Shown here piece after piece: positions 3,882 to 64,000 of a DNA stretch of 64,000 nt. Source of the stretch: an uncultured Rhodobacteraceae bacterium (GTDB lineage Bacteria; Pseudomonadota; Alphaproteobacteria; Rhodobacterales; Rhodobacteraceae); NCBI GenBank assembly GCA_903930735.1, contig CAIYZT010000441.1:2975-66974 (forward strand), read 5' to 3'. A program made the position numbers and the translations under genes. The notes beneath the pieces are model-generated. The model searched no databases. It was not told the DNA's origin and saw nothing but the letters and a program-made list of their open reading frames with translations. Positions within the stretch are counted from its first letter, which is position 1. The number at the start of each line of letters is the position of its first letter.

Positions 3882-3946
3882 CGCCATTTCCTTTTGGGTC
3901 GTCGTCAAGAGACAGGGCCATCATGGGTGCGGCCCGGTTTGGGCGT

Positions 3947-6854: not shown

Positions 6855-7495
6855 GTGCGGGCTTCCTTCGGCAAAGGCAGGGGCATCATACCGGCCATGG
6901 GCGCAAAGCCCGGAAGGCGCATGAACCGGTCGGTCCAGCGTTGGATCGCTGCGTAAGGTGCCAAATCAATCCCGCCCTCTTCAGCCAGAGCGACATAGGG
7001 AAAGCAGGCGATGTCGGCGATGGTCGGGTGTTCGCCCGCAATGATCCAGTCTTGCCCTGCCCATTCAGCAAACCACAGGTGGTCGTCAAGGATGCGCAAA
7101 AGCTGCACCCCGCCGGCCCGAGCTTTGTCCACATCCAGCCGGAAGAACATCGCATCATGCAGCCGCGCGGCGGAAATCGTGCCGGTGATACTGTCGGCAA
7201 AAGCCAGCCATTGATAGATCGGTCCGATCCTGTCCATCGGGCACCATTGGCCCAAGGGGTCGCGCGTGGTGGCCAGATAGATTAGGATGGCTTGGGCATC
7301 GCGGATAAGCTGACCATCGATCTCAATCACCGGGAGTTGCCCCAAGGGGTTGATCTTGCGGAAGGTGTCCGAGCGGTGCTCGAACCCGGGGTAGAAATCG
7401 ACCAGTCGGGTTTCGTATTCGAGGTCAAGCCAACTCAGAAGCAGCCGGACCTTGAAGCAGTTCCCCGACAGGGCATAGTCATATAATCTGATCAT
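6851..7495 (-). CDS. glutathione S-transferase family protein (copy 2)
   Basis: MIRLYDYALSGNCFKVRLLLSWLDLEYE...INPLGQLPVIEIDGQLIRDAQAILIYLA is a paralogue of 2399..3025. The ATG at 7495 forms an ATGA overlap with the upstream stop. Confidence 0.8.
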   Translation of the reverse strand: MIRLYDYALSGNCFKVRLLLSWLDLEYETRLVDFYPGFEHRSDTFRKINPLGQLPVIEIDGQLIRDAQAILIYLATTRDPLGQWCPMDRIGPIYQWLAFADSITGTISAARLHDAMFFRLDVDKARAGGVQLLRILDDHLWFAEWAGQDWIIAGEHPTIADIACFPYVALAEEGGIDLAPYAAIQRWTDRFMRLPGFAPMAGMMPLPLPKEART

Positions 7496-8031
7496 CCTGC
7501 CGCCTCCAGCCTGCGCCGCAGCGCCGTCAGCATGCGATGCGCCGCCATCGCATCCGGGTCGATGCCATAAACCATGCAGGCCGCTGCGCCCCAAGGGGTG
7601 ATCCGTGTTTTCGTAGGGTCTAGCTCGGCCGCGACCCGGTTGGCCGACACACCGAAATGAAGCGGTCGCAACGGCGGGCCTGCGAAGTCGCCGGTTTCCA
7701 GCACTCCGGCGGAGGCCCAGACAAAGCCGCCAGTGACAGCCGAAGCCAGCACGTGGGCGGAAATCTCGGGATGTCCCTTGCCTCCTTCGGCCGGGACATG
7801 GATTACCGTCCCGTCCTCTGCAAAGCGCCAGCCGTGATAGGGGTCTTCCAGATACGCCCCCATGTTGCGCCCGGCGCTCAGGCGGGAAGACCGGTGCGGG
7901 CAGCGGTCTTCCCAGACATGCACTGAGCCCGACGCGCCGCGCCAGATCACCAGTTCCGCCGTGTCCATCCGTCCTCGCACCAGCCCCTCCGGCAGAACCT
8001 CGCGGTCAAGGGCGACGATGTAGGTGCTCAT
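7492..8031 (-). CDS. stand-alone Rieske-like protein (copy 2) with Asp in place of the third cluster ligand
   Basis: CPHRSSRLSAGRNMGAYLEDPYHGW shows C-x-H present, but the expected C-x2-H reads D-P-Y-H. The ATG at 8031 forms an ATGA overlap with the upstream stop. Confidence 0.7.
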   Translation of the reverse strand: MSTYIVALDREVLPEGLVRGRMDTAELVIWRGASGSVHVWEDRCPHRSSRLSAGRNMGAYLEDPYHGWRFAEDGTVIHVPAEGGKGHPEISAHVLASAVTGGFVWASAGVLETGDFAGPPLRPLHFGVSANRVAAELDPTKTRITPWGAAACMVYGIDPDAMAAHRMLTALRRRLEAAG

Positions 8032-13927: not shown

Positions 13928-13937
13928 GGGAATTCTC

Positions 13938-49326: not shown

Positions 49327-49378
49327 GGGGTGGCGGGGTGGCGCAGGGTGGCGGTCAGTTTGCCGGACCAGCGCCACC
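49327..49378. promoter_or_regulatory. operator-like repeat block A (three direct GGTGGCG and one inverted CGCCACC)
   Basis: The 34-bp GGGGTGGCGGGGTGGCGCAGGGTGGCGGTCAGTT is identical to 51667-51700. It lies 64-115 nt upstream of the HTH gene start. Confidence 0.6.
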
Positions 49379-49708: not shown

Positions 49709-50302
49709 ATGGCATTGCCACCACGAGTATATTTCACCCTCATCGAAGCGGCGGTCCGCTGGAACTGCACGACGGCCGACATTGCCGCCTGGGCATCAGT
49801 CGGCAGGCTCCACATCGTCACCGCCATCGCGCCGGTGACGCATGGCCTGCAAACCGTGGCGGGGTACGTCGTGGTTTCGGTGACGGATATCCTGCACATG
49901 TTCCGACGTACGGGCGCCAGCCATTCCAGCGGCCTTGTGAAACGCGTTCGTCCGGCCGACCAGCAGGACTGGATCCTGATCGACGATCCGGCAAAGCATA
50001 TCCCGGTCACCATCGATGATCTCTTCATCATGGCGGAGGACGTCCAGCGCTTCGAGGCGGACTGGGAACTGGACCGGCGGCAGGGCGGATACATCGGCTC
50101 GGCCCCGCGCTATGATTGGGACGGCATGTATGTCGCGATGATGAAGCGCATGAATGAGCTGGGACCGCCAGAAACGCAGGCGGAATGGGTGGGTGAAATG
50201 CAGGAGTGGTTTATCGCCAACAGTGACGAGGGCGATGCGCCGGACGAGCGTACCATCAGGCGCCGGATCACGCCGGTCTGGAGGGCGCTGCGCGGTACAT
50301 GA
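49709..50302 (+). CDS. hypothetical protein with N-terminal HTH-like segment (lysogeny regulator candidate)
   Basis: YFTLIEAAVRWNCTTADIAAWASVGRL resembles an excisionase/MerR-type HTH. It is divergent from the early operon and adjacent to the integrase gene. Confidence 0.5.
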   Translation: MALPPRVYFTLIEAAVRWNCTTADIAAWASVGRLHIVTAIAPVTHGLQTVAGYVVVSVTDILHMFRRTGASHSSGLVKRVRPADQQDWILIDDPAKHIPVTIDDLFIMAEDVQRFEADWELDRRQGGYIGSAPRYDWDGMYVAMMKRMNELGPPETQAEWVGEMQEWFIANSDEGDAPDERTIRRRITPVWRALRGT

Positions 50303-50332: not shown

Positions 50333-51595
50333 TTAGGCCGACTTGCGGGCCGCCTCGCCCGCATCGTGCACCAGCTTGGGCTTCGGCCGGAATGCGCTCG
50401 CCACGGCATCGACGCCGGCGCGCAAGGGCGAGTCCATCAGGTGGGCATAGCGCTGGGTCGTCTGCATCTGGCTGTGGCCCAGCAATTTGCCGATCATCTC
50501 CAGTGAGGCGCCGCCGCTGACCAGGAGGGACGCGAACGTATGACGCAGATCGTGGACCCGAACCTCGGGGATTCCGACCTTCTTCTGGACGGCTGCCCAG
50601 AACCGGCGAATTTCCTGCACCGGCTGGCCCGGCGTGTCGCCGGGAAACAGGAAGGGGCAGCCCTTTGGCACCAGCAGGAGGCGCTGGCGGACGATGGACG
50701 CAGCTTCGTCGGAGATCGGCAGCCGGTGCACCTTCCGCTGCTTGGTCATGCTGGCGGGCTTGGACCAACTCAGGTGTTCAAGGCTGAAGTGTTCGAACCG
50801 AGCCTGGCGCACCTCGCCCACGCGGGCACCGGTCAGCATGCAAAGACGCAGGATGTCGGCCGCGCGACGGTCTTCGGCGGCGTCCAGCGCATCCGCCAGC
50901 TTGCGGATTTCTTCCTGGGTAAGGAACCTCTCACGCGGGTTTTCGATACGACGGTGAAAGCTGGCGGCGGGGTTGTCGTCGCGCCAGCCCCAGTTGACCG
51001 CATAGGTGAACATCTTGCGCAGAACCTCGCCGGTGCGGTTGGCACGCACCGGGGTCGGTTTGGCGCCCTGCAGCTTCCGCGCCCGGTTGTTCGGCTTTAC
51101 CTTCGACGGCCGAGCCCGACCTGCCGCCACCTTGTTCAGGAGCTTTTCGACGTCGTAGGGCGCGATCTCGCTGACCAGCTTGTTGCCCCAGTCCGGCGCC
51201 ACCATCTTCGCGAGCATCGACTTCTGGTCGGCGGCGTTGCGCGCCGCCAGCTTCGGCAGATGCACCTCGACATAGCGGTCGACCAGATCCTTGACCCGTG
51301 GTGCATCCCGACCGGTCTCCTTCTGTCCGAGCGGATCGCCACCGGCATCGATCTCTCGCCTTAATTCCTTGGCACGCTCCCGTGCCGCCGTAGTCGACCA
51401 TTCCGGCCAGCGCCCAATGGTCATCCGCCGCTGCCTTCCGGCGTGGCGATAGTCGATCGTGAAGGCCCGGTTACCGGACCGGTAGATGCAGACCGCAAAG
51501 CCTCGCACCTCGGTGTCGAAAATCTGATAATCCCTCCCCTTCTCAGGCTCGGCCTCACGGACAGATTTCTCGTTCAAACGCAATCGGTTGACCAT
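50333..51595 (-). CDS. int: P4-type tyrosine integrase (DUF4102 arm-binding N-terminus)
   Basis: LNEKSVREAEPEKGRDYQIFDTEVRGFAVCIYRSGNRAF, with catalytic GARVGEVRQ..., HDLRHTFAS and LGHSQMQTTQRYAH. Alternative start at 51619. Confidence 0.9.
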   Translation of the reverse strand: MVNRLRLNEKSVREAEPEKGRDYQIFDTEVRGFAVCIYRSGNRAFTIDYRHAGRQRRMTIGRWPEWSTTAARERAKELRREIDAGGDPLGQKETGRDAPRVKDLVDRYVEVHLPKLAARNAADQKSMLAKMVAPDWGNKLVSEIAPYDVEKLLNKVAAGRARPSKVKPNNRARKLQGAKPTPVRANRTGEVLRKMFTYAVNWGWRDDNPAASFHRRIENPRERFLTQEEIRKLADALDAAEDRRAADILRLCMLTGARVGEVRQARFEHFSLEHLSWSKPASMTKQRKVHRLPISDEAASIVRQRLLLVPKGCPFLFPGDTPGQPVQEIRRFWAAVQKKVGIPEVRVHDLRHTFASLLVSGGASLEMIGKLLGHSQMQTTQRYAHLMDSPLRAGVDAVASAFRPKPKLVHDAGEAARKSA

Positions 51596-51666
51596 GCAAC
51601 TCACCCTTCTTCCCGTCATCCCATGAGGCGTGGATTCGCGCCCTAGGCAAGCGATGCATGAGGACG

Positions 51667-51717
51667 GGGGTGGCGGGGTGGCGCAGGGTGGCGGTCAGTT
51701 GGTGAGCGCGCGCCACC
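51667..51717. promoter_or_regulatory. operator-like repeat block B (copy of 49327-49378)
   Basis: Identical 34-mer plus a downstream CGCCACC. It lies about 50-120 nt upstream of the integrase start. Confidence 0.6.
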
Positions 51718-51919
51718 ACCCGCTGCTCGCGTCTGCGATTGATAGGAATCGGCTCCCTCAGATGTGTGGTGCCAACCCATTTGCGCCTGACTTTTTTGGG
51801 GAATTTGCAGAGGCGAGTCTTGTCTTGATGGAGGAAACTACATAATGAACGGAGATATTTGCGGAAATTTCGTTGATACTGCCGATTTGAATGCCTATGT
51901 TGTGACTTGGAGGCGCAAC

Positions 51920-53131
51920 ATGATCTACCGACTCGAGATTGAGAACTTCTATTCTGTGCGCGAACGGCAGGTCGTCGACCTCACCGTTGGCAAGAAAGTT
52001 CCCGATGAGCCAGGCCGCCTGGTGCACATCCATGATGGCGCTGATGAGCGCGCGCCTAGAGTGGTCGCAATCTACGGCGCAAATGCTTCGGGAAAATCAA
52101 ACCTGCTGCGCGCGATCGCGTTCTTGGCTTGGTTCGTCCAGTTCAGTTTTCAGCACAAGGCAGGGGCAGGGCTACCGTACCAAAAGTTCCAGACCCAGGA
52201 TACCGTCAACGCGCCAACAAAGCTGTCGGTCACATTCGCGGGACTAGAAGATCCACTTGCCACCGCAGGTTTACGCACCTGCCCCTATGTTTATTCTCTT
52301 GAGCTGTCTTCCCGGGGTGACAGCGGAGATCGGGTGTTGAGCGAAACCTTGCATTACCGACCTAGTGGCGCCTCGCGAATGGTTCGGATATTCGAAAGGG
52401 ACGCATCTGGAGGAGTAAAGGCAGCCAGTTGGGTCGGCCTTGGCCGCGAGCTCTCGGTCCTAGAGAACATCCTTCGCCCCGATGCGAGTGTCATTGCGAC
52501 TTTGGGACAGCTGAACAACAAGCTCGCACTGAGCCTCATTCAATCGGCGAACGCGATCGACACGAACATTCTGCTTACGCGGTTTGAGCGTGATGACCTC
52601 GATCTACTGAAGAACTATGCGTTGGACTCCGAACTGCTCGAAGCCCTTAACCGCGATATCCGACGCATCGATCTGGGCATCGATCAAGTTCAGATACTGG
52701 CGGAGAACGGTGCTCCAGTGGCGAGTTTCGCTCACTCTGGTCTCGACCAGTCAATACGGATGTTGTTCGAAAGTCATGGCACCCAGCAGTTTTTCCGGAT
52801 CTATCCGACGCTTCACAGAGCTCTTGCGATTGGCGGAATTGCCGCCGTTGACGAACTTGACGTTGCGATACATCCCGCAGTTCTTCCGGAAATCTTGCGA
52901 TGGTTCTCCGACCCGGAGCGCAATCCCCATGGGGCCCAGCTGTGGATGAGCTGCCATGCTGTTTCACTCTTGGATGAGTTGCTGAAGGAAGAAGTGCTTA
53001 TCTGCGAAAAAAGCCCGAGCGGCGCCACCCAAGTCTATAGCCTCGGTGACATCAAAGGAATTCGCAGGGATGAAAACTTCCTGCAGAACTACTTGGGCGG
53101 CGTCTACGGCGGGGTTCCGAGTATAGGATGA
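51920..53131 (+). CDS. AAA_15/AAA_21-type ATPase (AbiLi/RloA-like)
   Basis: MIYRLEIENFYSV, Walker A GANASGKSNLLRAI, Walker B AAVDELDVAIHP. GGAGG lies before the ATG at 51920. Confidence 0.85.
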   Translation: MIYRLEIENFYSVRERQVVDLTVGKKVPDEPGRLVHIHDGADERAPRVVAIYGANASGKSNLLRAIAFLAWFVQFSFQHKAGAGLPYQKFQTQDTVNAPTKLSVTFAGLEDPLATAGLRTCPYVYSLELSSRGDSGDRVLSETLHYRPSGASRMVRIFERDASGGVKAASWVGLGRELSVLENILRPDASVIATLGQLNNKLALSLIQSANAIDTNILLTRFERDDLDLLKNYALDSELLEALNRDIRRIDLGIDQVQILAENGAPVASFAHSGLDQSIRMLFESHGTQQFFRIYPTLHRALAIGGIAAVDELDVAIHPAVLPEILRWFSDPERNPHGAQLWMSCHAVSLLDELLKEEVLICEKSPSGATQVYSLGDIKGIRRDENFLQNYLGGVYGGVPSIG

Positions 53132-53685
53132 GGGGGCGGCGCATCATAGAGCGGAGGGCTCGCGTCTTCCTTGGTTGCGAGGGGGAAAGCGAACAGGGCT
53201 ACGGCGTGCTTCTGCAGCGGTTCACCGATGCCGAAAGCCTGAGGATCCACATTGTGATCAAAAACCTGCAGCCTGCAGGTGACCCGCTTGCTTTGGCAGA
53301 AAAGGCGGCCCTCCTCTTCGACAAGGAAAACCGAAAGGCACCATTCATCGGCAAGGCAATTCTGCTCGACGCTGATCGCCTCGCCGAACCGCCAGACAGA
53401 GGGCGGCGGGCCTGTGAATTGCTCCGGCGGGAAGGCTTCACAACAATCTGGCAGAAGCCGGATCACGAGGGTCTTTTGCTACGCCATTTCGCCGGGCATG
53501 ACCATGATGATCCGGCAAGTGGAAGGTCAATGTCAGCTCTGCAAGCTGTCTGGCCCGGATACCACAAAAACATGGCAGCTGCGGATTTGCAGCGGCAGCT
53601 CACGATAGAGCATATAACGCGGGCAGCCGGAGTAACTGAAGAACTCATGGCGCTTCTTCGCATGATTGGCCTATGTCGCATCTGA
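53128..53685 (+). CDS. RloB-like protein (AbiLii-like)
   Basis: N-terminal VFLGCEGESEQGY matches the RloB CEGE.TE..Y signature. ATGA overlap with the ATPase stop. Confidence 0.8.
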   Translation: MRGRRIIERRARVFLGCEGESEQGYGVLLQRFTDAESLRIHIVIKNLQPAGDPLALAEKAALLFDKENRKAPFIGKAILLDADRLAEPPDRGRRACELLRREGFTTIWQKPDHEGLLLRHFAGHDHDDPASGRSMSALQAVWPGYHKNMAAADLQRQLTIEHITRAAGVTEELMALLRMIGLCRI

Positions 53686-53912
53686 GTTCGTAGCTCAGAT
53701 TCTTGTCATCGATGTGAGGCGATTATTCACTTCTGATCATTATGTCCGGTCGGCACATCAACGCCACCTCAACCCGGATATGCCGTTTTGGTCCGGCTGG
53801 TGTCGTCGAAACACGGCGAATGTCGGACAGAATCGGAATGACAATGACGCGAATTCAAAGTCTTGCACCGTAAGCTACTGATTTTATTGTGTTTGATGTT
53901 AAGCGTCGGGGT

Positions 53913-53960
53913 AGGCTCATAACCTGAAGGTCACAGGTTCAAATCCTGTCCCCGCAACCA
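53913..53960 (+). tRNA. 3' fragment (about 48 nt) of an initiator-type tRNA-Met(CAT): att-site remnant
   Basis: AGGCTCATAACCTGAAGGTCACAGGTTCAAATCCTGTCCCCGCAACCA covers the anticodon loop CTCATAA, the T-arm, the acceptor 3' strand and CCA. No D-arm or 5' acceptor strand lies upstream. Confidence 0.65.
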
Positions 53961-53988
53961 AAAAATCACAAGATATCAATGCGTTACA

Positions 53989-54011
53989 GGCCGCCCAAAG
54001 GGCGGCTTTTT
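53989..54011 (+). terminator. rho-independent terminator after the tRNA fragment
   Basis: GCCGCCC-AAA-GGGCGGC followed by TTTTT. Confidence 0.6.
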
Positions 54012-54024
54012 GCGTTCCAAATTC

Positions 54025-54158: not shown

Positions 54159-54683
54159 TCATGGAAACTCAATGACTTGTGCATGTGGGACAATCGCACC
54201 GCTCGCAAAACGACCGGGCAACAATGTTCTTATAACACCGGAATGAGTGACAAGCAGTGGCAATACATCGTCATCTATCGCTTCTAGCGTCTCGAAAACT
54301 CGCGCGTGGAACGCAGCTTCGGATTCGCTACCTTCTGGCTCCTGGCTTGATCGACGCTCCGTTTTGGGTCGCCCTTCAAGAACACCCCAGCCTCGCTCAC
54401 GAAGTCCGGGTGCGATTTTCAAAGGCAAAGCCAATTTGTCTGAAACATACTGTGCCGTCTGTTGGCATCGCTGAAGTGAGCTCGAATAGATTGCACCAAC
54501 GCCTAGAGTTAGGAGGACATCCGCGACATTTCGTGCCTGTTCCATTCCCAAGGCGTTAAGCGGAACATCAGCTGCACCCATAACAAGGCCCCGCTTGTTC
54601 CAGTCCGTTTGGCCGTGGCGGATCAGGATTAGACGACTTTTCCTAAACCTAGCTGGAATGTCGTGAAAATCTATGGTCCCCAA
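54159..54683 (-). CDS. histidine phosphatase superfamily protein (PGM/CobC/PhoE branch)
   Basis: LILIRHGQTDWN (RHG motif), ..SSSLQRCQQTA.., LLVTHSGVIRTL (second catalytic His). TTG start 8 nt after GAGGA. Confidence 0.85.
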   Translation of the reverse strand: MGTIDFHDIPARFRKSRLILIRHGQTDWNKRGLVMGAADVPLNALGMEQARNVADVLLTLGVGAIYSSSLQRCQQTAQYVSDKLALPLKIAPGLRERGWGVLEGRPKTERRSSQEPEGSESEAAFHARVFETLEAIDDDVLPLLVTHSGVIRTLLPGRFASGAIVPHAQVIEFP

Positions 54684-54694
54684 ATACTAAATCC

Positions 54695-55693
54695 TCAGAA
54701 CATTAGTGCCAAAGCTATATCATCTGGCGTTCCGTCTGACTTAAGGAGCAATGATATCAACTCGCGGCGGAACTCACGTGCCACCTCGGTTAGATCACGA
54801 TACTCAATTGTTTCGAGTCCAAGCTTGCCGTTTGCATCCAATCGCCCACGAACTTCCGGAAGATCAAGAGCATTCAGAAAAGTTGCATAGCACGCTAGTG
54901 CGCCCGCCATGCGATCGCTGCCAAAGATCTCGCGCAATCTTTCAACAGGCGGCATCGCCAGTAGACGGGTGAGAGCGGCGCGCTTTGCGGCGGCATTCTT
55001 ACCTGCAGTTTCTCGGATAGCTGCGACGCCAGCAAAGTAGAGCAGCATCCTTGAAAGGCGTAGCTTGATCAGCCGGATCGCCCTCGGTTTGTTCGCATCA
55101 GCGGTCTTGAACTCGAAGTCAACGCAAATGGTGCGCCAGTATCGAATCACATCATTCAGAAGAAATCGACATATCTTGTGTTCTTCCAAGTCATCGGCGA
55201 CATAGCGCTGGATCAACTCCTCGCGAAGCTTCTCAAATCCTGACTGGTTGAAAATCCACTCCCCTTCGAGGAGGTATAACATCCGGCGCGTGATGAATGT
55301 ATTGGTGTCGTCATCGCCGCCAATTTTTGAATGGAGCTCTGACTTCTGCAAAGGGGTTTCGAAAACGCCGCCCGACGCAGGCATCTTGACCCCTTTCCCG
55401 CGCAATGCGCTCCGGTAGGAGTCGAGGATTTTTGTTGCAGCGGCTATATCTTCGTCAACTGAAAGCACGAAAAGATCAACGTCAGATCCGCTTGTAGCTT
55501 CTCTTCTGGCAATGCTGCCATTAACGCCGAGAATTACATTTGGGTTCTCGCCGATAGTTTCGAGTGCGATTTTACGCAGCTCTAGGAGCTGACGCTCGGA
55601 CTCAGAGAGAGCTTTGTTAAGAACTGCAAGCACTTCGTCTTTATCGGTAATGCGTCTGACCGGACTGGGCGCGATCAAATTCAAGATGCCCAT
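54695..55693 (-). CDS. Pol-beta-fold nucleotidyltransferase with helical C-terminal domain (GlnD/DUF294-like)
   Basis: GVNGSIARREATSGSDVDLFVL (G-S ... D-x-D). The C-terminal RFLLNDVIRYWRTICVDFEFK...IKLRLSRMLLYF resembles the DUF294_C substrate-binding domain. Confidence 0.75.
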   Translation of the reverse strand: MGILNLIAPSPVRRITDKDEVLAVLNKALSESERQLLELRKIALETIGENPNVILGVNGSIARREATSGSDVDLFVLSVDEDIAAATKILDSYRSALRGKGVKMPASGGVFETPLQKSELHSKIGGDDDTNTFITRRMLYLLEGEWIFNQSGFEKLREELIQRYVADDLEEHKICRFLLNDVIRYWRTICVDFEFKTADANKPRAIRLIKLRLSRMLLYFAGVAAIRETAGKNAAAKRAALTRLLAMPPVERLREIFGSDRMAGALACYATFLNALDLPEVRGRLDANGKLGLETIEYRDLTEVAREFRRELISLLLKSDGTPDDIALALMF

Positions 55694-56742
55694 CCGATCA
55701 AATCTCCAAGCGTGCTCGTTTGGTAGAGTTTTGTCTGTTTGTAACGGGCATTGATTGATTCAGACTTCAATGGTGCAATATCCTTACAGATAAAGAACGA
55801 CCTTACCTTCAGCCTAACTTCTTGACTCATCCAATCACGAGGGGTCTGATCGCACAATACTCCCCTAGGCCGTGACGCCTGATCAAGATAAGCAAAAAGT
55901 TGGCGATGCCGGGCTCTGAAACTACGCTCGGTAAGGAGAAAGTCGTCCGGGGAAAACAAAGCTAAGTTAGAGCGCATGTAAACTTGTGCGATCGCATCAA
56001 GGGCTGCGCCATGAGGAGCGCCGATGAAGAGATTATAAACCTCATGCTTCAATTCCCAAAACGCGTCGAAATCTGCGATCGGCAACTTTTTGCCAGTTGC
56101 CCACTTTCGTACGATCGATCTGGCGGAGTTTGGTGCGGCGCGAGGTGCCATGAAGGCCCGACAACGTGTTATCCCGTCCAAAGTGTCGAGATTTATTTGC
56201 CCTGAAAACAAGAAGCCAATATCGCCGTCATGCTTGCCGTCTATAAGAGCAAGAAGTTCATCAACGTCGATTTTGGCTTCCACCAGCAGGTCGAGAATTT
56301 CCTGCCCCAACTTAGTCTCGCCGGTCACTATTCGGCGCGTCATCGAATGATGATTGATGCCGAACCTTTCGTCAAAAACCGCTTCCAAAGTATGAGACAG
56401 CGGTCCATGGCCGACATCATGGAGAAGCGCAGCAGCAATAAGCAGAATTCGACGGCTCTCAGGGAGCTCAGCGCTGCGCGCATAAAGGTTTGCAAGGTCG
56501 GCCACGGCAATCGAATGCTCGAGACGATTGTGTCGGCGTCTGTGCGCAGATCGACCAGATCCGTGTCGAACGTAGTCGATTGCGCCGAGGAAGCCGATCC
56601 CGGCTAGCCGTCGCAATGGCGCAGTTGCAATTAGCGCCGAGGCTATAGGATCAGCAAAGCATGTCACATCGTCGGAACGAAAGGTTCCGCCGCTGGGTGT
56701 CCACACCATAGATAGAGGTTCGATAACAGACGATTGATCCAT
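55681..56742 (-). CDS. SAMHD1/dGTPase-like HD-domain phosphohydrolase
   Basis: RLEHSIAVADLA...LIAAALLHDVGHGPLSHTLE (H...HD...). Possible starts are 56742 (ATG), 56709 (ATG) and 56817 (GTG, longest). Confidence 0.85.
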   Translation of the reverse strand: MDQSSVIEPLSMVWTPSGGTFRSDDVTCFADPIASALIATAPLRRLAGIGFLGAIDYVRHGSGRSAHRRRHNRLEHSIAVADLANLYARSAELPESRRILLIAAALLHDVGHGPLSHTLEAVFDERFGINHHSMTRRIVTGETKLGQEILDLLVEAKIDVDELLALIDGKHDGDIGFLFSGQINLDTLDGITRCRAFMAPRAAPNSARSIVRKWATGKKLPIADFDAFWELKHEVYNLFIGAPHGAALDAIAQVYMRSNLALFSPDDFLLTERSFRARHRQLFAYLDQASRPRGVLCDQTPRDWMSQEVRLKVRSFFICKDIAPLKSESINARYKQTKLYQTSTLGDLIGWAS

Positions 56743-56955
56743 TTGATCCAGATGAAACGAAAAAAGAGAGCGATTCTCCCTGACGATAACCTGTATGTAG
56801 GTACGTGGGCCATACACTCAAGTCATATCTACGGCTCTTTGGTCACACGATTTCTGGTCAAAGACCAGCAAATTGTATCGGAATGGCGCGTTGGACACTC
56901 CCGCGAGTGTCCGAGCGTGGTGTTGCACTGCTGTAGGGACCCGCAGCCCAAGAGT

Positions 56956-57126
56956 TCATTTTCGCCCTCGCTTGTCGCTAACCGACCAGATCACTGACCC
57001 GATGGTAAACAGGGCCCCGATAACCGGCTCGATGTCCGAGGCCTGGACGTAGCCTTTGGCGACCAGCGCGGTGCCAGCGACGGTCAGTACTTGCCGGATT
57101 AAGGCGAGGATTGCAGGTTTCAGCAT
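56956..57126 (-). CDS. 56-aa two-TM holin-like peptide
   Basis: My translation MLKPAILALIRQVLTVAGTALVAKGYVQASDIEPVIGALFTIGSVIWSVSDKRGRK. AGGAG lies 7 nt before the ATG. It is directly downstream of the muralytic gene and below the ORF-track cutoff. Confidence 0.45.
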   Translation of the reverse strand: MLKPAILALIRQVLTVAGTALVAKGYVQASDIEPVIGALFTIGSVIWSVSDKRGRK

Positions 57127-57139
57127 GATGGTCTCCTGT

Positions 57140-57793
57140 TCAGATTTCGTTGTTGGTTGCGAGGAATTCGCCCGGCTTCATTGTCGGCAGACGCTGCAGG
57201 CGGGGTGGGTAGGTTGCGGGCCAGCGCGCTCCTAGGAGGCGGGACTTGGCGATGCGTGCGATGGTGACGGCGTCGGATTGGTTGCCGCCGAGCACGTAGA
57301 AATGCGTGTCGTCCTGGCCGATTGCGAAACCGACATGGCCTCCGGAGCCGCGTTTAAAGATCAACACGGCGCCGATGATCGGCTGCACCTGACGGCCAAA
57401 GAGCAGCCAGTGCCGGGCCCAGTAGGGATTTGTACCCAGCGCGCCCAGCAACGGCTCGTCGGGCAGGACCACTCGGATGCAGGTTTCCACAAAATCCCCG
57501 CACCACGGGTTCTTGGACGGATCGCCCAGCGACCGGCCGTCGCGTTTTAGCCAATCCATCAGCCAGGACCGGTCGCGGGCCTCATGGCGGCCGAGGGCGG
57601 ACTTGGCTTCGGTGATCCAGGGCAGCGGGCCCGGCGGGGCAACGGACGCCGCGCGGCCATTGGCGGCCAGCAGTGATTTCATCGCCCTGGCGGTGCGCAG
57701 CCCCCAAAGGCCGTCGATGGCGCCGGGGGAATGGCCGAGCTTGTCCAGACCGCTCTGGATCAGGCGGAGGGGATCGCGAGTGTCGGTGTTCAT
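57140..57793 (-). CDS. peptidoglycan-binding domain plus CHAP/NlpC-like hydrolase (TIGR02594-type)
   Basis: PG_binding_1-like LGHSPGAIDGLWGLRTARAMKSL, catalytic NPWCGDFVETC, ...GGHVGFAIG...VLGGNQSD. Confidence 0.8.
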   Translation of the reverse strand: MNTDTRDPLRLIQSGLDKLGHSPGAIDGLWGLRTARAMKSLLAANGRAASVAPPGPLPWITEAKSALGRHEARDRSWLMDWLKRDGRSLGDPSKNPWCGDFVETCIRVVLPDEPLLGALGTNPYWARHWLLFGRQVQPIIGAVLIFKRGSGGHVGFAIGQDDTHFYVLGGNQSDAVTIARIAKSRLLGARWPATYPPRLQRLPTMKPGEFLATNNEI

Positions 57794-57825
57794 GGGGTGG
57801 CTCCTTTCGCCCGTCGCCGGGTATG

Positions 57826-57849
57826 AAAAAACCCGCCTTGCGGGCGGGT
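57826..57849 (-). terminator. rho-independent terminator (minus strand)
   Basis: Minus strand reads ACCCGCCCGCAAGGCGGGTTTTTT. Confidence 0.6.
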
Positions 57850-57880
57850 GCGGGGTGGTTCGGATTGGTAGGTGGTTGGG

Positions 57881-58189
57881 TCAGTCGGTGCGGCCGCGCT
57901 GAAAGGCTTCGAACATCAGATCGCGCATCGCGCAGATGTCGGCTTCGATGCGCTCCAGCCGATCGGCATCGTCGTGTCGATCTTCGGCCCGCTGGCGATC
58001 GGCACGGTCACGCTCGGCCGCGAGTTCCAGGTCGAGGCGCGCCAGCATAGCGTCGTTGGTGAAGGCTATCCGCGTGACGGCGGCTAGGAGGGCAATCGTG
58101 CCGCCAACCAGTGCCGTGATCGCGGCCGTCACTCCGTGGTCACGGAAGGCCGCGCCAACCTCCTGCAGGATCGTCGTTTTCTCATCCAT
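57881..58189 (-). CDS. membrane-anchored coiled-coil protein (lysis or spanin-like candidate)
   Basis: TM segment AAITALVGGTIALLAAV followed by a charged helical tail (LELAAERDRADRQRAEDRHDDADRLERIEAD). ATG at 58189 lies 8 nt after GAAGGA. Confidence 0.5.
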   Translation of the reverse strand: MDEKTTILQEVGAAFRDHGVTAAITALVGGTIALLAAVTRIAFTNDAMLARLDLELAAERDRADRQRAEDRHDDADRLERIEADICAMRDLMFEAFQRGRTD

Positions 58190-58200
58190 GAGATTGTCCT

Positions 58201-60129
58201 TCAATAATCGGTTTCGACGTAGACGCCTGAACAGTCGTAGGCGACGGCCGCCGCGGTGGCGCCGGTGTTCAGGTAGAGGCGGGGCGAGAGGAACTGCGTG
58301 TTGGCGGGCAGATCGGCGATGATTTCGGCCTCGAACACGGCGCCCGAAACCTCATTGACCAACCGGACCCAGACCGAGGCGGCATTCGGTGCTGCAGCGA
58401 CATAGAGCGTCAGCACCCCGCCGGTCGCGATGGCAAAGCCTGCACCCATGTCAGTCAGGGTTGGTGCGCCGGTGCCGTCATTGGCGACCAGCTGCCAGTT
58501 GGCATGGGTGCCGCGCTGGAAGCCGACGCCGACGCAGTTCAGCACGGTAGCCAAGGCCAGGGTGGTGGCCAGCGCTGCGGTGGAGCCGTAGAGACCGAAA
58601 AATCCCATTCCGGTTGCCTGCAACGTGGTCAGCGACAGCCGGGTGACGAAGGTCCAGCCGCCGAGACCTGCCGCATTTCCCCGCCAGCAAGCCCAGCCCG
58701 CTGATCGCTGTTCTGCGACTGAATCCACCACTGCGGCCGAGGTTAGCCGCCAGCGCCGGATGCTTGCGGCAAGGTTGGTGGCAGCCAGTGTCGGGTGCGA
58801 GACCGTGCCGACCGAGGTGATCGGCAGCCCTTCTGTGGTGATCGTGGTGGTGATCGAAGGCGACCAATTCGCAATACGGTTCACCCCGAAATGCGGCTGC
58901 AGCGGGAAATCCCGGCCAGACGGGCGCATGACATCGACCCAGGGCGCACCTGCGCGGTTGCGTGCATAGACCGCGATCTTTCCCGTCGGCGGCGGCGAAG
59001 GGGCTGCGGCCAGCCCGGGCAGAATGGTGGGCTGCGGCAGTTCGACCTGACCGTTGGTGCGATCGATGGTGATGGCGTCAAAGAAAGTCGAGCCATCCGG
59101 GCTGACCTTGAAGCCGAAGTTGTCACTGCCCAGCAACCCGATCAGCGCCCGAACGGAGAAGCCGGTCTTGAAGGCGAAGGCGGCGTCATTGGCTGGGGCA
59201 GCCTTGTTGATCGTCGCCTCGATCCCGGCACCAGCATTGTTGAAGAGCATGGCCGGGCTGTTGATCGACAGGCGATTGTAGCTGTCGGCAGTGGCGCCCC
59301 CGAGGCCCAGCAGCTGCGCTGTGAGGTTCGCCTGCGGCATGCCGACCTGCGTGACCGCGTTGGCAAAGGTGACTGTCGGCGTATTGACCACCGTCGTGCC
59401 GCCCGCGCCCGCTGCGACCGGGCCGATGTTTACGACCGTGGTCGATCCGGACGCGCCGCCGGTGCCAAGGTTCACGGTCTTGGTGACGCCGGTGGTCGTG
59501 GCACCCGTGCCCATGCCATAGGTGGCAGTCGTGGTCGCCGTGCCGATCGTGGCGGCCGCAGCCGAGACCGTCACGGTTCCCGATGCTGTCAGCGTGCCGG
59601 AAAAGGTCTTGTTGCCGGTAAAGGTCTGGGTGCCCGCGAGGATCGCCAATTCGCTGGTGGTGTTGGGCAGGGTGAAAGTCCGGGTCGTGCCGGTGGTGAT
59701 GCCCGCCAGTTCGAACATCGCCTTCTTGGTCGGATCGGCATCATCGGTCAGCGTGAATGCCGTATCGGCCACGCCCGCGGCCAACAGGGCGCCGATCAAC
59801 GACACCCACGCTCCCGCACTGAACACCAGCGAGGTCAGCGTCGCTTCATTCCAGGCAAGCCAGCCATCCTTCGGGGCATAGAACACCCAGGCCCCATCCT
59901 GCCTGGCGGCGATCTGGGTCGCGCGGCCTGCCCAGAGGCCGGTAGGGGCGGGCCCGATGATCCAGCGGTGGCCGTCGGCGGGGGCCCCTGGCGGCGTGGA
60001 CAGTGCAGCGCTTTTGACCGCGATCTGCACAAGCACATCGAGAAACCGCAGGCCCTCGTTCACCGTGACATGCTTTTGCGATTGGCTGGCCCCGAGATAG
60101 GGCAGCGCAAGGTTCGTGGATTGGCTCAT
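58201..60129 (-). CDS. DUF2793-type tail fibre protein (second copy)
   Basis: NLALPYLGASQSQKHVTVNEGLRFLDVLVQ. Paralogue of 12239..13927 with a different C-terminal part. Confidence 0.8.
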   Translation of the reverse strand: MSQSTNLALPYLGASQSQKHVTVNEGLRFLDVLVQIAVKSAALSTPPGAPADGHRWIIGPAPTGLWAGRATQIAARQDGAWVFYAPKDGWLAWNEATLTSLVFSAGAWVSLIGALLAAGVADTAFTLTDDADPTKKAMFELAGITTGTTRTFTLPNTTSELAILAGTQTFTGNKTFSGTLTASGTVTVSAAAATIGTATTTATYGMGTGATTTGVTKTVNLGTGGASGSTTVVNIGPVAAGAGGTTVVNTPTVTFANAVTQVGMPQANLTAQLLGLGGATADSYNRLSINSPAMLFNNAGAGIEATINKAAPANDAAFAFKTGFSVRALIGLLGSDNFGFKVSPDGSTFFDAITIDRTNGQVELPQPTILPGLAAAPSPPPTGKIAVYARNRAGAPWVDVMRPSGRDFPLQPHFGVNRIANWSPSITTTITTEGLPITSVGTVSHPTLAATNLAASIRRWRLTSAAVVDSVAEQRSAGWACWRGNAAGLGGWTFVTRLSLTTLQATGMGFFGLYGSTAALATTLALATVLNCVGVGFQRGTHANWQLVANDGTGAPTLTDMGAGFAIATGGVLTLYVAAAPNAASVWVRLVNEVSGAVFEAEIIADLPANTQFLSPRLYLNTGATAAAVAYDCSGVYVETDY

Positions 60130-60161
60130 ACCAATGCCTCCAAGGGTTCAAGGGGACAGGA

Positions 60162-63100
60162 TCAGACGAGGGCCTCTGCGGCGGCTCCGCGGCCCAGCGC
60201 GCCGATCTGATAGACGCGAAAGCGGAGGGTTGTGACGGGCCCGCCGAAATCCGCCACGATCATCGCGGCGGTGTAGACGAACGAGGGCGTGGCGATGCCA
60301 GACACCGTGCGCACCACGGCCGCGCCGTTGAGGATTTCCAGATCATAGGCCTCGGTGGTCTCGCCTAGAGGCACTTCGACCAGCACCCAACTGTCGCCGC
60401 TGCTTGCCCGGGTGCGCCGCAGCCATGTCAGCAGCAAGTCGCCCCCTGGCTGTGGCATCCCGCGCAGCTGCGCCGGGCTGAAGGGGCGCAGGCCTTGCCC
60501 TGATGGGGTGAAGGCCAGTTGCAGGTTAAGCGGGTCTGCCGCCGCCACCGTTGACGGGCCGATCCGCCAGTTGGCGGGCAGACCGATATCGCTTTCACCG
60601 ATGGCGATCGGCGTGACGGCGGCATTCAGCACCACCACCCGCGCTCCTGCTGAGGCCGGATTGGCGATGGCATCTTCAGTTCCGAACTGGCCGCGCAAGA
60701 GGTGGGTCAGCTTCCAGCGCCCGGGGCTTTGCAGAGCGGCCGTGCCAAATTGGACGATTTCCCAGACGCAGGGAGCGGCCTCAATGGCCACCGGATTGCC
60801 TCCGGCCAGCAGGGCCTCGTTGTCGAGGCTGCTGAAAGTGCCGCAGGCCACATCCACCCAGAGCTCGTTGCCATCATCGAAGCGCCAGAACGGCCCGGAA
60901 AAGAAATCGAAGGCCAACGTGCCGAGCCGGGCGGGCTGGCCCATGGTGCCCAGCGCCGTGAAGCCATCACTGGACGGGCTGCGCCAGATCAGCGCCGATC
61001 CATACCAAGGTGCTGCGAACACTGCGGCATATGGGCGGTGGGCCGGGATATCGTCGGCCAGCTGCGGCAGGTTCATCAAGATCGCTGCCGGTGGCCCGAA
61101 TACCGTCGGCGCAATGAAGGCGGGCGTCCGCTCTGGGCCCGGCGGCAGATCATAGAGGGTCTGGTCGGTGCGTTTGGCCTCGATCCGCCGCGCGCCGCCA
61201 TCAGTGATCCGGGCCAGCACATAGTCGGGCGTGCGGCCGTCATGTTCGAGGCGAATGACATCAGTCGGGTCCAGCGCCAGGCGCGACGGTGGCAAGGCGA
61301 AAGCCGCATCTTCCCGGCCGATCCATTCCTCATAAAGCGCCCGCCGCGCCGCCCGATCAGCGAGGGCGGCGGGATAGACGATAGGAAACTGCTCGGTCCG
61401 CACCCGGGCGGTGTCGACCGTAATCCGGCGTGCCTCAACCGATAACGATCCATAATCCTCGTCCGGCATCAGAAGGCGCCATTTGAGCGCGCGGGGCAAT
61501 TCGGTCTCCTGCGCCCGGGTGAAGCTGATGTCCTCCGCGTTCCGATCGGTGATCACCAGCGTGTCGGCGGCGATCTGGGCCATGGCGGGTCGACCGCGTG
61601 GTACGAAGCGCAACCGACCGCCGGTCTCGACGACGTCAAATCCGTAGAACTGTGCCAGCGGGGCGATCGACGCCCGGGCGCTCTCGATTGCGGTAATGGC
61701 ATAGCCCGGCACGGTGGCCGCCAGTTGCGTCACATCGATCATCTCCAGCGGCACGCCGCCGGTGCGGCAGAGTTCGCGGACCAGTTCCGCCAAGCCACAG
61801 CCGCCGATCCGGCCGGTGAGCCAGTGCCCAAGACGGTAGTTGTCGATGTCGGACCAGACGTCGGAGCGCACCGGGAAAGCCGGGTAGGGCCGGGCGTCCC
61901 ATGTCCAGATGGCAATCTCGGCCGTGTCGATCATCCGTCCGGAATAGAGGCCGGAGGTGGGGTTTTTCGCGGGGTCGTTCCAATAGGGATAGAGTGCCTC
62001 GATGTATCGCCGCTGGACCAGATCGTCCTGATAGCCCCGGGAAAAGTAGGGCAGGAAGGATTCCGAGGATTTCGGGTCATAGAAGACGTTCGGCTGGTTG
62101 GTGCCGCGATCGACGGCAGGCGCCCCGGCTTCGGTGAAGCGGACTCGTTTCGATTGCGGAACCCAAGGGGTGGGCGATCCGCTCTGCACTCCGCCGGGCC
62201 GGTTGAAATGCTGGTTGAGCCACCAGCTGCGTATATCCTTGGGCCGAAATACCCATGGCTTGCCATGGGCGCCGTCGGTGACCGCGGTGCGCACCTGTGC
62301 GGCGCGATCGGCATCAGAGGCATAGAACCAGTCGAATCCTTCGCCGCCCTCGATGTTCGATTGCAGATAAGACAGGTCATAGATCGCAGGCCAGCCCGCC
62401 AGCGCATCGAGATGCTGATCGCCATCGCGCCAATCCGACAGCGGCATATAGTTGTCGATGCCCACGAAGTCGGTGTTGGCATCGGCCCAGAGCGGATCGA
62501 GGTGGAAGAACAGATCGTTTGTACCATCTTGCGGCTGGTGGCCGAAATATTCCGACCAGTCGGCCGCATAGCTGAGCTTGGTGCCCGATCCCAAGACCGA
62601 CCGACATGCGGAAGCCAGACTCTGCAGAGCCGCCACCGTGGGATAAGTGCTGGCGCCGGATCGGATCTGGGTTAACCCGCGCAATTCGCTGCCGATCAGG
62701 AAGGCGTCAACGCCTCCGGCCGCCACGCAGAGGTGGGCGTAATGCAGCATCATTCGGCGCAAGCCCCAGTCGGAGGGCGATCCGGTCCATGTCACCGCGC
62801 TGCCCGACACCGCGAAATTGCCAGGCACTGCCGCGCCAAAGAACGCCGAGACCTGCGTTGTCGCGGCCGCGGTCTTGTCGACCGTGCCCGCGAAGCCCGC
62901 GGCGGGCGCACAGGTGATCCGGCCGCGCCAGGGGTATTTCGGCTGGCCCAGCGCTGCGGCATTGTTCGAATAAGGGTTCGGCAGCGTATTGGCCTCGGGC
63001 ACGTCCATCAGCAGGAACGGGTAGAACGTCACCCGAAACCCGCGAGCTTTCAGTTCCTGGATGGCCTGCACAACTGAGAAGTCGCTGGGCGTGCCGCCGT

Positions 63101-64000
63101 AAGCCGGGCTGCCGCTGATCTGCGACACGACATAGGCGGCGGACCGTGCCACCCCGTTCACCAGCCAGAGCTTCGGAGCGGTCACTTTGCTGGCGGTTTC
63201 CACGCCGGGCTTGATCTGACAACTGCCCGCGCGCAGGTCGGTGCCGAACCATGCCACCACCAGCGACACCGATCTGCAGTTCGGCGCGGTGGCTTCCAAC
63301 TGATCGAGCGAGGTCAGAAAATCGCACTGCCCGCCGCTGGAATTGACGTTCTCGGGCAGCACTGCCCCGCCGACAACCGTCCGTGTGATCGGTTCGGTCG
63401 CATAGATGAACTCGCCCGAGGACGGGATCATGTTCACCGCAGTGAGCAACTGCTCGGCGCTATCGGGCTCCTCGCTGGGCCGATACACCTCAAAGGAAAG
63501 CTGCGGCAGCCGGTTGCCAAACGTCGCGAGCGGCAGGTTCTCGAACAAGATATAAGCGGTGCCGCGATAGGCCGGGGCGAGCCCTGCACCCATCGTCGCT
63601 TCGATGAACGGATCGGGCATCTGGGTCTCAGAACCGAGGTGCAGCCGCCACACAGCGCCAGGCACATCAAAGGCACTGCCGTCGGCCCAGATGCGACCGA
63701 TCCCGCCAATCGGGCCAGTGGCGATCGCCACGGCGATGCTCGCGAAATAGCTGTATTCCTCGACGACAACACCGCCGCCACCGCCTTTGCCGCCGCCGCT
63801 CTGGCGGGTTTCAGAATAGACCTCGCGGAAATCCGTGGCCCAAATGATGTTGCCGCCGACCCGCATCCGACCATAAACGCGCGGGATCACCGCGCCTTCG
63901 GTGGCGCTGGTGACGCGCAATTCATCCAGCCGCGCGCCTTCCTGCCGCTGATCTGGCGTGAAGGAAGAGATAATGCGGGAGTCGATCGCCGTGCCGATCA
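60162..64000 (-). CDS. RcGTA g15-like host-specificity protein (second copy), 5'-partial at window edge
   Basis: Collinear with 13938..17894 (YGRMRVGGNIIWATDF..GRIWADGSAF..). The reading frame stays open upstream of the track start to position 64000 (..IGTAIDSRIISSFTPDQRQEGARLDELRVTSATEG). Confidence 0.9.
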   Translation of the reverse strand, partial: IGTAIDSRIISSFTPDQRQEGARLDELRVTSATEGAVIPRVYGRMRVGGNIIWATDFREVYSETRQSGGGKGGGGGVVVEEYSYFASIAVAIATGPIGGIGRIWADGSAFDVPGAVWRLHLGSETQMPDPFIEATMGAGLAPAYRGTAYILFENLPLATFGNRLPQLSFEVYRPSEEPDSAEQLLTAVNMIPSSGEFIYATEPITRTVVGGAVLPENVNSSGGQCDFLTSLDQLEATAPNCRSVSLVVAWFGTDLRAGSCQIKPGVETASKVTAPKLWLVNGVARSAAYVVSQISGSPAYGGTPSDFSVVQAIQELKARGFRVTFYPFLLMDVPEANTLPNPYSNNAAALGQPKYPWRGRITCAPAAGFAGTVDKTAAATTQVSAFFGAAVPGNFAVSGSAVTWTGSPSDWGLRRMMLHYAHLCVAAGGVDAFLIGSELRGLTQIRSGASTYPTVAALQSLASACRSVLGSGTKLSYAADWSEYFGHQPQDGTNDLFFHLDPLWADANTDFVGIDNYMPLSDWRDGDQHLDALAGWPAIYDLSYLQSNIEGGEGFDWFYASDADRAAQVRTAVTDGAHGKPWVFRPKDIRSWWLNQHFNRPGGVQSGSPTPWVPQSKRVRFTEAGAPAVDRGTNQPNVFYDPKSSESFLPYFSRGYQDDLVQRRYIEALYPYWNDPAKNPTSGLYSGRMIDTAEIAIWTWDARPYPAFPVRSDVWSDIDNYRLGHWLTGRIGGCGLAELVRELCRTGGVPLEMIDVTQLAATVPGYAITAIESARASIAPLAQFYGFDVVETGGRLRFVPRGRPAMAQIAADTLVITDRNAEDISFTRAQETELPRALKWRLLMPDEDYGSLSVEARRITVDTARVRTEQFPIVYPAALADRAARRALYEEWIGREDAAFALPPSRLALDPTDVIRLEHDGRTPDYVLARITDGGARRIEAKRTDQTLYDLPPGPERTPAFIAPTVFGPPAAILMNLPQLADDIPAHRPYAAVFAAPWYGSALIWRSPSSDGFTALGTMGQPARLGTLAFDFFSGPFWRFDDGNELWVDVACGTFSSLDNEALLAGGNPVAIEAAPCVWEIVQFGTAALQSPGRWKLTHLLRGQFGTEDAIANPASAGARVVVLNAAVTPIAIGESDIGLPANWRIGPSTVAAADPLNLQLAFTPSGQGLRPFSPAQLRGMPQPGGDLLLTWLRRTRASSGDSWVLVEVPLGETTEAYDLEILNGAAVVRTVSGIATPSFVYTAAMIVADFGGPVTTLRFRVYQIGALGRGAAAEALV

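Follow-up and report, generated by a model that had tools for sequence, protein, structure and literature searches.

Introduction

The closest described relative of the locus reported here is Clover, an anti-phage system in which the gene for a deoxynucleoside triphosphate (dNTP) triphosphohydrolase (dNTPase), CloA, is followed by the gene for a nucleotidyltransferase (NTase), CloB (Yamaguchi et al., bioRxiv 2025/2026, PMC12265719). In Salmonella and Xanthomonas, CloB constitutively makes p3diT, which binds and suppresses CloA, and CloA depletes dGTP when dTTP rises in the course of T5-like infection (PMC12265719). The experimentally validated CloB proteins come from Salmonella SA20044414, E. 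coli H5 and Xanthomonas. We describe a cassette of three genes, encoding a predicted HD-domain dNTPase, a Pol-beta-superfamily NTase and a histidine phosphatase, in a 64,000-nucleotide (nt) stretch of DNA (the window) from an uncultured Rhodobacteraceae bacterium (assembly GCA_903930735.1, contig CAIYZT010000441.1, positions 2,975-66,974 of the forward strand). The three genes are real and form a mobile cassette of probable anti-phage function, and the two-gene core matches Clover. What is new with respect to the described system is a clade of short, SAMHD1-type effectors and, above all, the recurrent histidine phosphatase.

Several properties of Clover bear on the reading of this cassette. 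Protection against T5-like phages exceeds 10,000-fold, active-site mutants of CloB are highly toxic, remodelling of the nucleotide pool is central to triggering, and the T5 escape loci are Dmp and NrdAB (PMC12265719). The half-maximal inhibitory concentration for CloA is 7.6 uM with p3diT and 20.9 uM with p2diT, p0diT being inactive, and the dinucleotide co-purifies non-covalently with its effector (PMC12265719). SeCloA is a Dgt-type protein of ~460 amino acids (aa) with the catalytic residues H69, H117/D118 and H126/E129, an N-terminal arginine pocket for p3diT (R29/R34/R38) and a dTTP pocket formed by C-terminal bundle residues 418-452 (S418-Y452). Methylobacterium symbioticum SB0023/3 is listed among the representative Clover operons (Fig. 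1a of PMC12265719), and ~650 CloB homologues are coloured by the identity of the adjacent effector in Extended Data Fig. 1a of the same paper, so that variation of the effector had already been recognised by its authors.

Results

Organization of the cassette

The HD, NTase and phosphatase genes lie in this order on the minus strand and are packed as one unit (Table 1). A preliminary description of this DNA, made by reading the sequence, had proposed a compact operon with intact catalytic motifs in an AT-rich island; the coordinates and junctions agree with that description, and the motifs of all three proteins are both present in the window and conserved across the family. The overlap of the HD stop with the NTase start suggests translational coupling, and a Shine-Dalgarno-like GAGGA at 54696-54692 overlaps the NTase stop. 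Between 54 and 57 kb the GC content is 0.50-0.53, as against ~0.65 in the flanks. Promoter and terminator scans gave nothing above shuffled sequence. A scan of one genome per species yielded 188 related loci, of which the best 80 were retained for all locus counts given below; since the gene arrangement is conserved in these 80 species-level genomes, it is not a product of chance.

Table 1. The cassette and neighbouring features in the window, with the basis of each assignment; functions are predicted from homology.
Feature	Position	Strand	Basis
HD-domain dNTP triphosphohydrolase (predicted effector; CloA-like role, EF1143/SAMHD1 type)	55681-56817	-	Open reading frame, 378 aa from GTG; Pfam HD
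Pol-beta-superfamily nucleotidyltransferase (predicted regulator; CloB-like)	54695-55693	-	Open reading frame, 332 aa; PADLOC PDC-M70A
Branch-1 histidine phosphatase (accessory third gene)	54159-54683	-	Open reading frame, 174 aa, TTG start; Pfam His_Phos_1
13-nt overlap of HD stop and NTase start (probable translational coupling)	55681-55693	-	Sequence: TGA 55683-55681 and ATG 55693-55691
NTase/phosphatase junction	54684-54697	-	NTase TGA 54697-54695 within TGAGGA; 11-nt spacer, then TTG at 54683
tRNA-Met(CAT), 3' part from anticodon loop to CCA; attachment (att) site remnant bounding the cassette downstream	53909-53960	+	Alignment to the intact tRNA-Met of locus L002
AbiLi AAA ATPase	51845-53131	+	PADLOC AbiLi 9.8e-72; Pfam AAA_21
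AbiLii/RloB	53128-53685	+	PADLOC AbiLii 3.3e-6; Pfam RloB
Integrase gene	50333-51619		
Prophage end directly upstream of the cassette, same strand	56956-63920	-	PHROGs: phrog_37382 small protein, tail lysozyme, phrog_19136, phrog_13925 fibre-like protein, 1252-aa tail protein

The HD effector

By sequence and by predicted fold, the HD protein is closest to EF1143 and SAMHD1, and we predict it to be a dNTP triphosphohydrolase of this type. It matches Pfam HD at 2e-12 and the dGTPase models locally, with 24-30 bits against cutoffs of 390-510. A sequence search of the PDB retrieved EF1143 (2o6i, 2e-11) as well as SAMHD1. The AlphaFold 2 model, with a mean predicted local distance difference test score (pLDDT) of 82 and residues 1-46 disordered, was compared with solved structures in Foldseek, a check that the preliminary description had suggested; EF1143, an Aquifex protein (2hek, O67745) and SAMHD1 were the top matches, with a probability of 1.0 and template modelling (TM) scores of 0.55-0.59, and no Dgt-type structure was present among the top 50. 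The metal-binding motif (H101, H133-D134, D211) and the HE dyad H142/E145 are conserved in 73-77 of 78 sequences, the dyad lying at +9/+12 from the HD pair, the same spacing as that of H126/E129 in Dgt.

Homologues of the HD protein are 340-365 aa long, and the window protein measures ~340-378 aa depending on the start codon. Because of these lengths and of the disorder predicted for residues 1-46, the GTG at 56817 is probably over-called, and ATG 56742 or ATG 56709 is the more likely start. The longest HD open reading frames of three Lichenihabitans loci (L054, L066, L076) reach 690-720 aa; given that homology begins ~330 residues in, this length most likely reflects over-extension of the reading frame in very GC-rich DNA and not a fusion.

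The nucleotidyltransferase

The NTase matches the PADLOC model PDC-M70A at 3.8e-48, with protein residues 20-321 aligned to model positions 17-343 of 355, and falls below threshold with Pfam NTP_transf_2 (6e-4). Its active site, G59-S60...D71-V-D73, is invariant among homologues, of which 387 were found, mostly unannotated, in Rhodobacterales, Rhizobiales and beyond. The AlphaFold 2 model (pLDDT 92) has an NTase fold whose nearest solved relatives, DrrA (E 6e-5), GlnE AMPylation domains, ANT and HalB, are all weak matches, at TM 0.39-0.43 and 11-13% identity in the case of DrrA and GlnE. A Pfam scan of the NTase gave no GlnD or GlnE family match, and one relative (P0240) carries DUF294, a GlnD-like NTase family of Pfam. 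With every solved relative this distant, the label GlnD-type used in the preliminary description is true of the protein only at the level of fold class. The split writer/eraser switch of GlnD kind that had been proposed there has little in its favour, the NTase likeness being one of weak fold similarity (TM 0.43) and the HD protein being of SAMHD1/EF1143 type and not a uridylyl-removing HD domain.

A more distant NTase homologue (32% identity), in the region 3209-7628 of locus L082 on plasmid pEmeITTGR7a of Sinorhizobium mexicanum, has no HD gene preceding it. Its stop codon and the start of the next gene, which encodes a 240-aa hypothetical protein, share 1 nt, and an AbiEii-family gene adjoins. 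This locus may pair a CloB-like NTase with a different effector.

The histidine phosphatase

The third protein matches Pfam His_Phos_1 at 1.1e-36 and has the hallmarks of a branch-1 enzyme, namely the RHG histidine, two arginines, a proton-donor glutamate and a second histidine. The catalytic residues R22, H23, R72, E96 and H147 are present in 29/29 operon-linked homologues (28-29/29 when N29 is counted). Its best NCBIfam match is CobC, below the cutoff, and the model for MutT1, an 8-oxo-(d)GTP phosphatase, is matched weakly; PADLOC models gave no match. Identification as a CobC alpha-ribazole phosphatase (TIGR03162) was considered and rejected, since the score of 94 bits (7e-27) falls short of the cutoff, 162.9, and the neighbourhood contains no cob genes.

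The phosphatase gene lies directly downstream of the NTase gene in 29/80 loci (27 complete, 2 truncated by the contig end), with gaps of -29 to +26 nt, and is divergent and upstream in two further loci, both from Sphingomonas. It is absent from 49/80 loci, all with enough downstream DNA to show it. Operons with a phosphatase gene form at least three groups on the NTase tree, set apart from one another by two-gene operons: a Rhodobacteraceae clade that includes the window; a group of Pseudomonas, Algoriphagus, Draconibacterium and Marinospirillum; and Sphingomonas. This distribution may reflect either one ancient component that was lost repeatedly or a class of enzyme that was recruited several times. 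Divergence of the phosphatase parallels that of the NTase (Spearman 0.71; 0/2000 permutations in a Mantel test) and that of the HD protein (0.70).

A superfamily search of 1.84 billion representatives returned 26,795 members at E <= 1e-3, only ~30 of them above 102 bits. Several top-ranked representatives match operon-linked phosphatases of the surveyed loci identically or closely, and the operon-linked Pseudomonas enzyme scores 103 bits against that of the window; the enzymes from L052, L064 and Sphingomonas are far more distant (30-54 bits). Multidomain relatives consist of tandem phosphatase domains or of insertions in tRNA synthetases.

No other third gene recurs among the two-gene operons, save a DUF5131-like gene in four loci. 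In this sphingomonad/Devosia sub-clade (L020, L024, L026, L027), a conserved gene of 273-276 aa with the N-terminus MAKNSKIEWTTHTFNPWWGC lies ~55 nt downstream of the NTase gene; the protein resembles the DUF5131/phage Gp37-Gp68 family, and the gene may be either an accessory of a different kind or a system of its own.

Related loci and their contexts

Wherever a locus includes upstream DNA, the NTase gene is directly preceded by an HD gene of the same orientation, L015 being the one exception; the two genes typically overlap, frequently by 4 nt, or are separated by a few nucleotides. The preliminary description had made its proposal depend on conservation of the three genes as a unit; such conservation is borne out for this core, and the triad is not obligate, as 49/80 loci hold the core alone. 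The flanks of the cassette differ in every genome, and the cassette is therefore mobile.

The contexts are those of defence islands and mobile genetic elements, as the surroundings in the window had first suggested. The closest genomic relative of the window, a three-gene locus (L001), adjoins a complete Type I restriction-modification system, and another (L006) adjoins a short prokaryotic Argonaute (pAgo) with SIR2-APAZ. In enterobacteria, ColE1/Rop plasmids of 4.5-4.7 kb (L081, E. coli pISHS7_5, and L087-L092) carry the short-HD/NTase pair and no other cargo; the pair also occurs within an integrase island of Salmonella, next to a Hachiman system of Serratia, and in P2-type prophages of Klebsiella between tail-fibre and gpU/tape-measure genes. 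Carriage by phages themselves is rare, with one IMG/VR contig and none among 50,697 sequenced phages, and the pair was found in 1/5,426 complete E. coli genomes.

Two records call for comment. In pISHS7_5 the HD gene spans the origin of the record, and the gene table of the plasmid does not list it. The contig CAMCYD010000038.1 (L077), from a metagenome-assembled genome labelled Helicobacter pylori PMSS1, carries an NTase-phosphatase operon whose nearest company on the NTase tree is a member from Phenylobacterium, and the contig is probably mis-binned.

Relation of the core to Clover and PDC-M70

Locus L040 is from M. symbioticum SB0023/3, the strain listed as a Clover representative, and carries homologues of both core proteins of the window (HD, 38% identity, 8e-52; NTase, 38%, 5e-58) between an AbiEii gene and an integrase. 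All NTases tested, that of L040 included, match PDC-M70A at 1e-45 to 1e-59 with uniform scores of 150-200 bits, from which we infer that the model derives from a sister clade. We accordingly place the HD-NTase core of the window in the Clover-type class, an assignment reached through these matches rather than by direct comparison with a validated CloA or CloB sequence. A literature search returned no publication on PDC-M70, and PDB searches by sequence and fold, in which SpdGTPase of the Clover paper (9P8W) was present, surfaced no CloA or CloB. The preliminary description had presented the operon as a candidate undescribed system and recommended a PADLOC search; the novelty of the core is untenable, the NTase matching the PADLOC candidate PDC-M70A and the core being of Clover class, and that of the phosphatase remains in place. 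The enzyme is mentioned neither in the Clover paper nor in the other papers that could be searched, in keeping with the earlier statement that no named system has this three-gene composition, and a tightly coupled phosphatase appears to be undescribed in such operons.

The enterobacterial NTases have their DxD at D61/D63, as in the legend of Clover Fig. 3, a coincidence that is only suggestive given that their partners are short HD proteins. We considered whether these members are the validated Salmonella/E. coli Clover and rejected this, as their HD partners are 343-351 aa long and SeCloA has residues up to Y452. Numbering in PMC12265719 is itself inconsistent. The mutated residues of CloB appear as D71A/D73A both in Fig. 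1 and in the text, and as D61A/D63A in the legend of Fig. 3; for CloA, most passages give H117A/D118A and Extended Data Fig. 1b gives H116A/H117A; and PDB entries 8P9S-8P9V stand beside 9P8W. Residue numbering is for this reason of limited use as evidence.

Surroundings in the window

The cassette lies between the last late genes of a prophage and an att remnant, and we therefore regard it as low-GC cargo at the prophage end. The tRNA-Met remnant, which the preliminary description had noted as a tRNA att remnant, lacks its 5' half and is present as a single copy in the window; ARAGORN and Rfam made no call at this position, and alignment confirmed the remnant instead. Beyond it, at 53988-54018, lies a terminator-like hairpin with a T-run. 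Of the phage genes reported on both sides, the integrase gene lies on the left, and the tail and lysozyme genes on the right are genuine; the matches of the latter to PHROGs are near full-length (1704 bits for the tail protein, phrog_4271; 1177 bits for phrog_13925), and these genes have relatives in Rhodobacter capsulatus phages.

The neighbouring AAA-ATPase/RloB pair proved to be an AbiL system. It is complete and lies in DNA of moderately low GC content (0.55) between the integrase gene and the tRNA-Met remnant, on the opposite side of the remnant from the three-gene cassette, and is not part of the operon. A functional link between the two was rejected, since only 1/80 loci has an AbiLi homologue alongside the operon.

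Two further features of the window were observed. Phage-type tail clusters at 13658-17786 and 59860-63998 are paralogous, their DNA being 71-77% identical at a constant offset of ~46.2 kb. The first of them has no low-GC cargo and adjoins ordinary metabolic genes of the chromosome, located at 1-10 kb (Rieske/VanA oxygenases, glutathione S-transferases, LysR, ATP-binding cassette transporter); it may be a cluster resembling a gene transfer agent or another, related prophage. The 34-nt sequence GGGGTGGCGGGGTGGCGCAGGGTGGCGGTCAGTT occurs as a perfect direct repeat at 49327-49360 and 51667-51700 (2.34 kb apart); the two copies flank the open reading frame 49709-50302 (phrog_13283) and the integrase gene, and are possibly an att-type duplication.

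Discussion

Our analyses revealed an operon whose HD and NTase genes recur together in nearly every related locus, whose third gene recurs in separated clades with its catalytic residues intact, and whose surroundings in the window and elsewhere are those of mobile DNA and defence systems. We propose the following model. The HD dNTPase, when active, would deplete dNTPs and thereby block replication of phage DNA. The NTase would constitutively make a small inhibitory nucleotide, by analogy with p3diT in Clover, which binds the HD enzyme and keeps it off, and a shift in the nucleotide pool upon infection would release the effector. That an NTase-made signal controls an HD effector, one of the two mechanisms put forward in the preliminary description, has been demonstrated experimentally for Clover (PMC12265719). 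For the phosphatase, we regard turnover of this signal as the likeliest role: it may remove the terminal 5' phosphate or phosphates of the inhibitory signal, giving the inhibitor a short half-life and thereby setting the threshold and speed of effector release. In Clover, inhibition depends on the 5' phosphates. Since the enzyme is optional, occurring in ~40% of loci, it fits a modulator better than an essential part or an effector. Taken together, a Clover-type anti-phage cassette, carried as low-GC prophage cargo at a tRNA att site and equipped with a phosphatase that trims the inhibitor, is to our minds the probable explanation of the locus.

Histidine phosphatases normally act on phosphomonoesters, and action on a 5'-triphosphate would be unusual. 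This is one of several points that weigh against the model. Others concern the kinship with Clover. The link to the validated system is indirect, resting on the name of the M. symbioticum strain, and neither the HD protein nor the phosphatase of the window, nor any of eight HD partners from diverse clades, matches PDC-M70B. The window effector is a ~340-aa protein of EF1143/SAMHD1 type, whereas SeCloA is a ~460-aa protein of Dgt type with a C-terminal dTTP pocket; being short and of this other branch, the HD enzyme could differ from SeCloA in its activator, substrate and inhibitor. As for the phosphatase, its co-divergence with the core could in part reflect shared host phylogeny. Fusions of the phosphatase to HD or NTase domains were looked for and none was found, and since many short phosphatases of similar score have no assigned context, a dedicated subfamily is unproven.

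Could the third gene serve another purpose in the same operon? With the core unchanged, the phosphatase might be a second effector or a helper that acts on bulk nucleotides, either as a phosphatase of deoxynucleoside mono- and diphosphates that blocks salvage or by clearing triphosphate, in both cases deepening depletion. The products of a dNTPase are a deoxynucleoside and triphosphate, and pool remodelling, with Dmp and NrdAB as escape loci, is central to the triggering of Clover. The nearest named relatives of the enzyme act on alpha-ribazole-5'-phosphate and phosphoglycerate, and the weak MutT1 match shows that the fold can handle nucleotides. Constitutive activity on the bulk pool would be costly, however, and there is no sign of regulation; together with the optional presence of the gene, which speaks for a modulator, this makes such a role unlikely. 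Lower still we rate the idea that the cassette is at heart an addiction module resembling a toxin-antitoxin system, in which the HD protein is the toxin, the product of the NTase the antitoxin, and the phosphatase the enzyme that keeps the antitoxin labile, with the module stabilising a prophage or plasmid and defence being secondary. The toxicity of CloB inactivation in Clover speaks for such a module, as do the small ColE1/Rop plasmids with the pair as sole cargo and the prophage-end position in the window. The strength of Clover protection against T5-like phages argues for defence, as do the many loci in chromosomal defence islands beside restriction-modification, pAgo, Hachiman or AbiE systems. 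Addiction and defence are compatible roles and not mutually exclusive.

The NTase could also be a protein nucleotidylyltransferase of the GlnE, DrrA or GlnD kind, AMPylating or UMPylating the HD protein or another target, with the phosphatase acting on a phospho-protein or a modified intermediate. We consider this very unlikely. DrrA and the GlnE AMPylation domains are indeed the best structural matches of the NTase, and P0240 carries its GlnD-like domain; yet the matches are weak, the product of those NTases of this class that have been characterised is a free, non-covalently bound dinucleotide (PMC12265719), and the fold of the HD protein is that of a dNTPase, not of the GlnD type. A histidine phosphatase, moreover, cannot remove a nucleotidyl phosphodiester adduct. 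Finally, the genes might be housekeeping genes of nucleotide or cobalamin metabolism that are adjacent by accident, a reading to which the CobC match of the phosphatase lends some colour. That match is well below the cutoff, and the surroundings are not the cobalamin or nucleotide-salvage contexts that the preliminary description had considered as a counter-indication: there are no cob genes nearby, the DNA at the prophage/att junction is low in GC and foreign, the flanks vary, and related loci reside on small plasmids and in prophages. Accidental adjacency is thus effectively refuted by context and hardly deserves further weight.

What is the relevance of the phosphatase if the Clover-type model holds? 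Intact and recurrent in ~40% of one large NTase clade, it is a natural candidate for controlling the level and lifetime of the inhibitor. A sharper version of the model, to which we are drawn tentatively and with more doubt than belief, makes it a dedicated, operon-encoded eraser: the inhibitor would then behave as a labile small-molecule antitoxin, and the dNTPase would fire once synthesis falters or the dNTP pool shifts. If true, this would be the first defence system under negative control by a nucleotide signal in which the host itself encodes an enzyme for turnover of that signal, and the occurrence of the same enzyme class in several clades, in tandem in Rhodobacteraceae and in Pseudomonas/Bacteroidota and divergently in Sphingomonas, would point to a recurrent design.

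The effector is of interest in its own right. CloB-type NTases pair across many phyla with a compact SAMHD1/EF1143-like dNTPase that is distinct from the Dgt-type CloA, which broadens the Clover family. One possibility is that this short clade uses a signal or a trigger other than p3diT and dTTP. We speculate that it represents a minimal bacterial relative of SAMHD1 under the control of a nucleotide signal.

Comparison with known systems

The likeness to Clover is extensive. In both, an HD dNTPase gene precedes a Pol-beta NTase gene on one strand with tight coupling; the effectors share the HD motif, the HE dyad and a dNTPase fold, and the NTases a DxD active site; and both are placed in defence islands and mobile genetic elements. 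Apart from the effector type discussed above, the window operon differs in its third gene. The PADLOC candidate PDC-M70 has in common with the window an NTase that matches PDC-M70A over its full length, and differs in that no PDC-M70B component corresponds to the HD protein or the phosphatase.

Stand-alone defence dNTPases, including the dGTPase/dCTP deaminase systems of Tal et al. 2022, and the enzymes SAMHD1 and EF1143 follow the same logic of dNTP depletion and share the fold. SAMHD1 and EF1143, the best structural matches of the window HD protein, are allosterically controlled by nucleotides. In contrast to the stand-alone enzymes, the dNTPase of the window type is always paired with a dedicated NTase, and in contrast to SAMHD1 it is much shorter, with sequence similarity confined to the HD core.

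In Hailong, where HalB makes oligo-dA, and in Panoptes, which uses 2'3'-c-di-AMP, the product of a constitutive NTase likewise holds an effector off, and HalB is a weak match of the window NTase in both sequence and fold. Unlike the window operon, these systems act through an ion channel or a membrane protein rather than a dNTPase, their signal is lost through phage factors, and their operons contain no host enzyme that degrades it.

Host-encoded erasers of an immune second messenger are known from type III CRISPR systems, in the form of the ring nucleases Crn1-3 and Csx3. As operon-linked enzymes that degrade the system's own nucleotide signal, they offer a conceptual analogue of the role proposed here for the phosphatase, although the enzyme families are unrelated and the consequence would be the reverse: ring nucleases erase an activating signal and turn immunity off, whereas erasure of an inhibitory signal by the phosphatase would prime activation.

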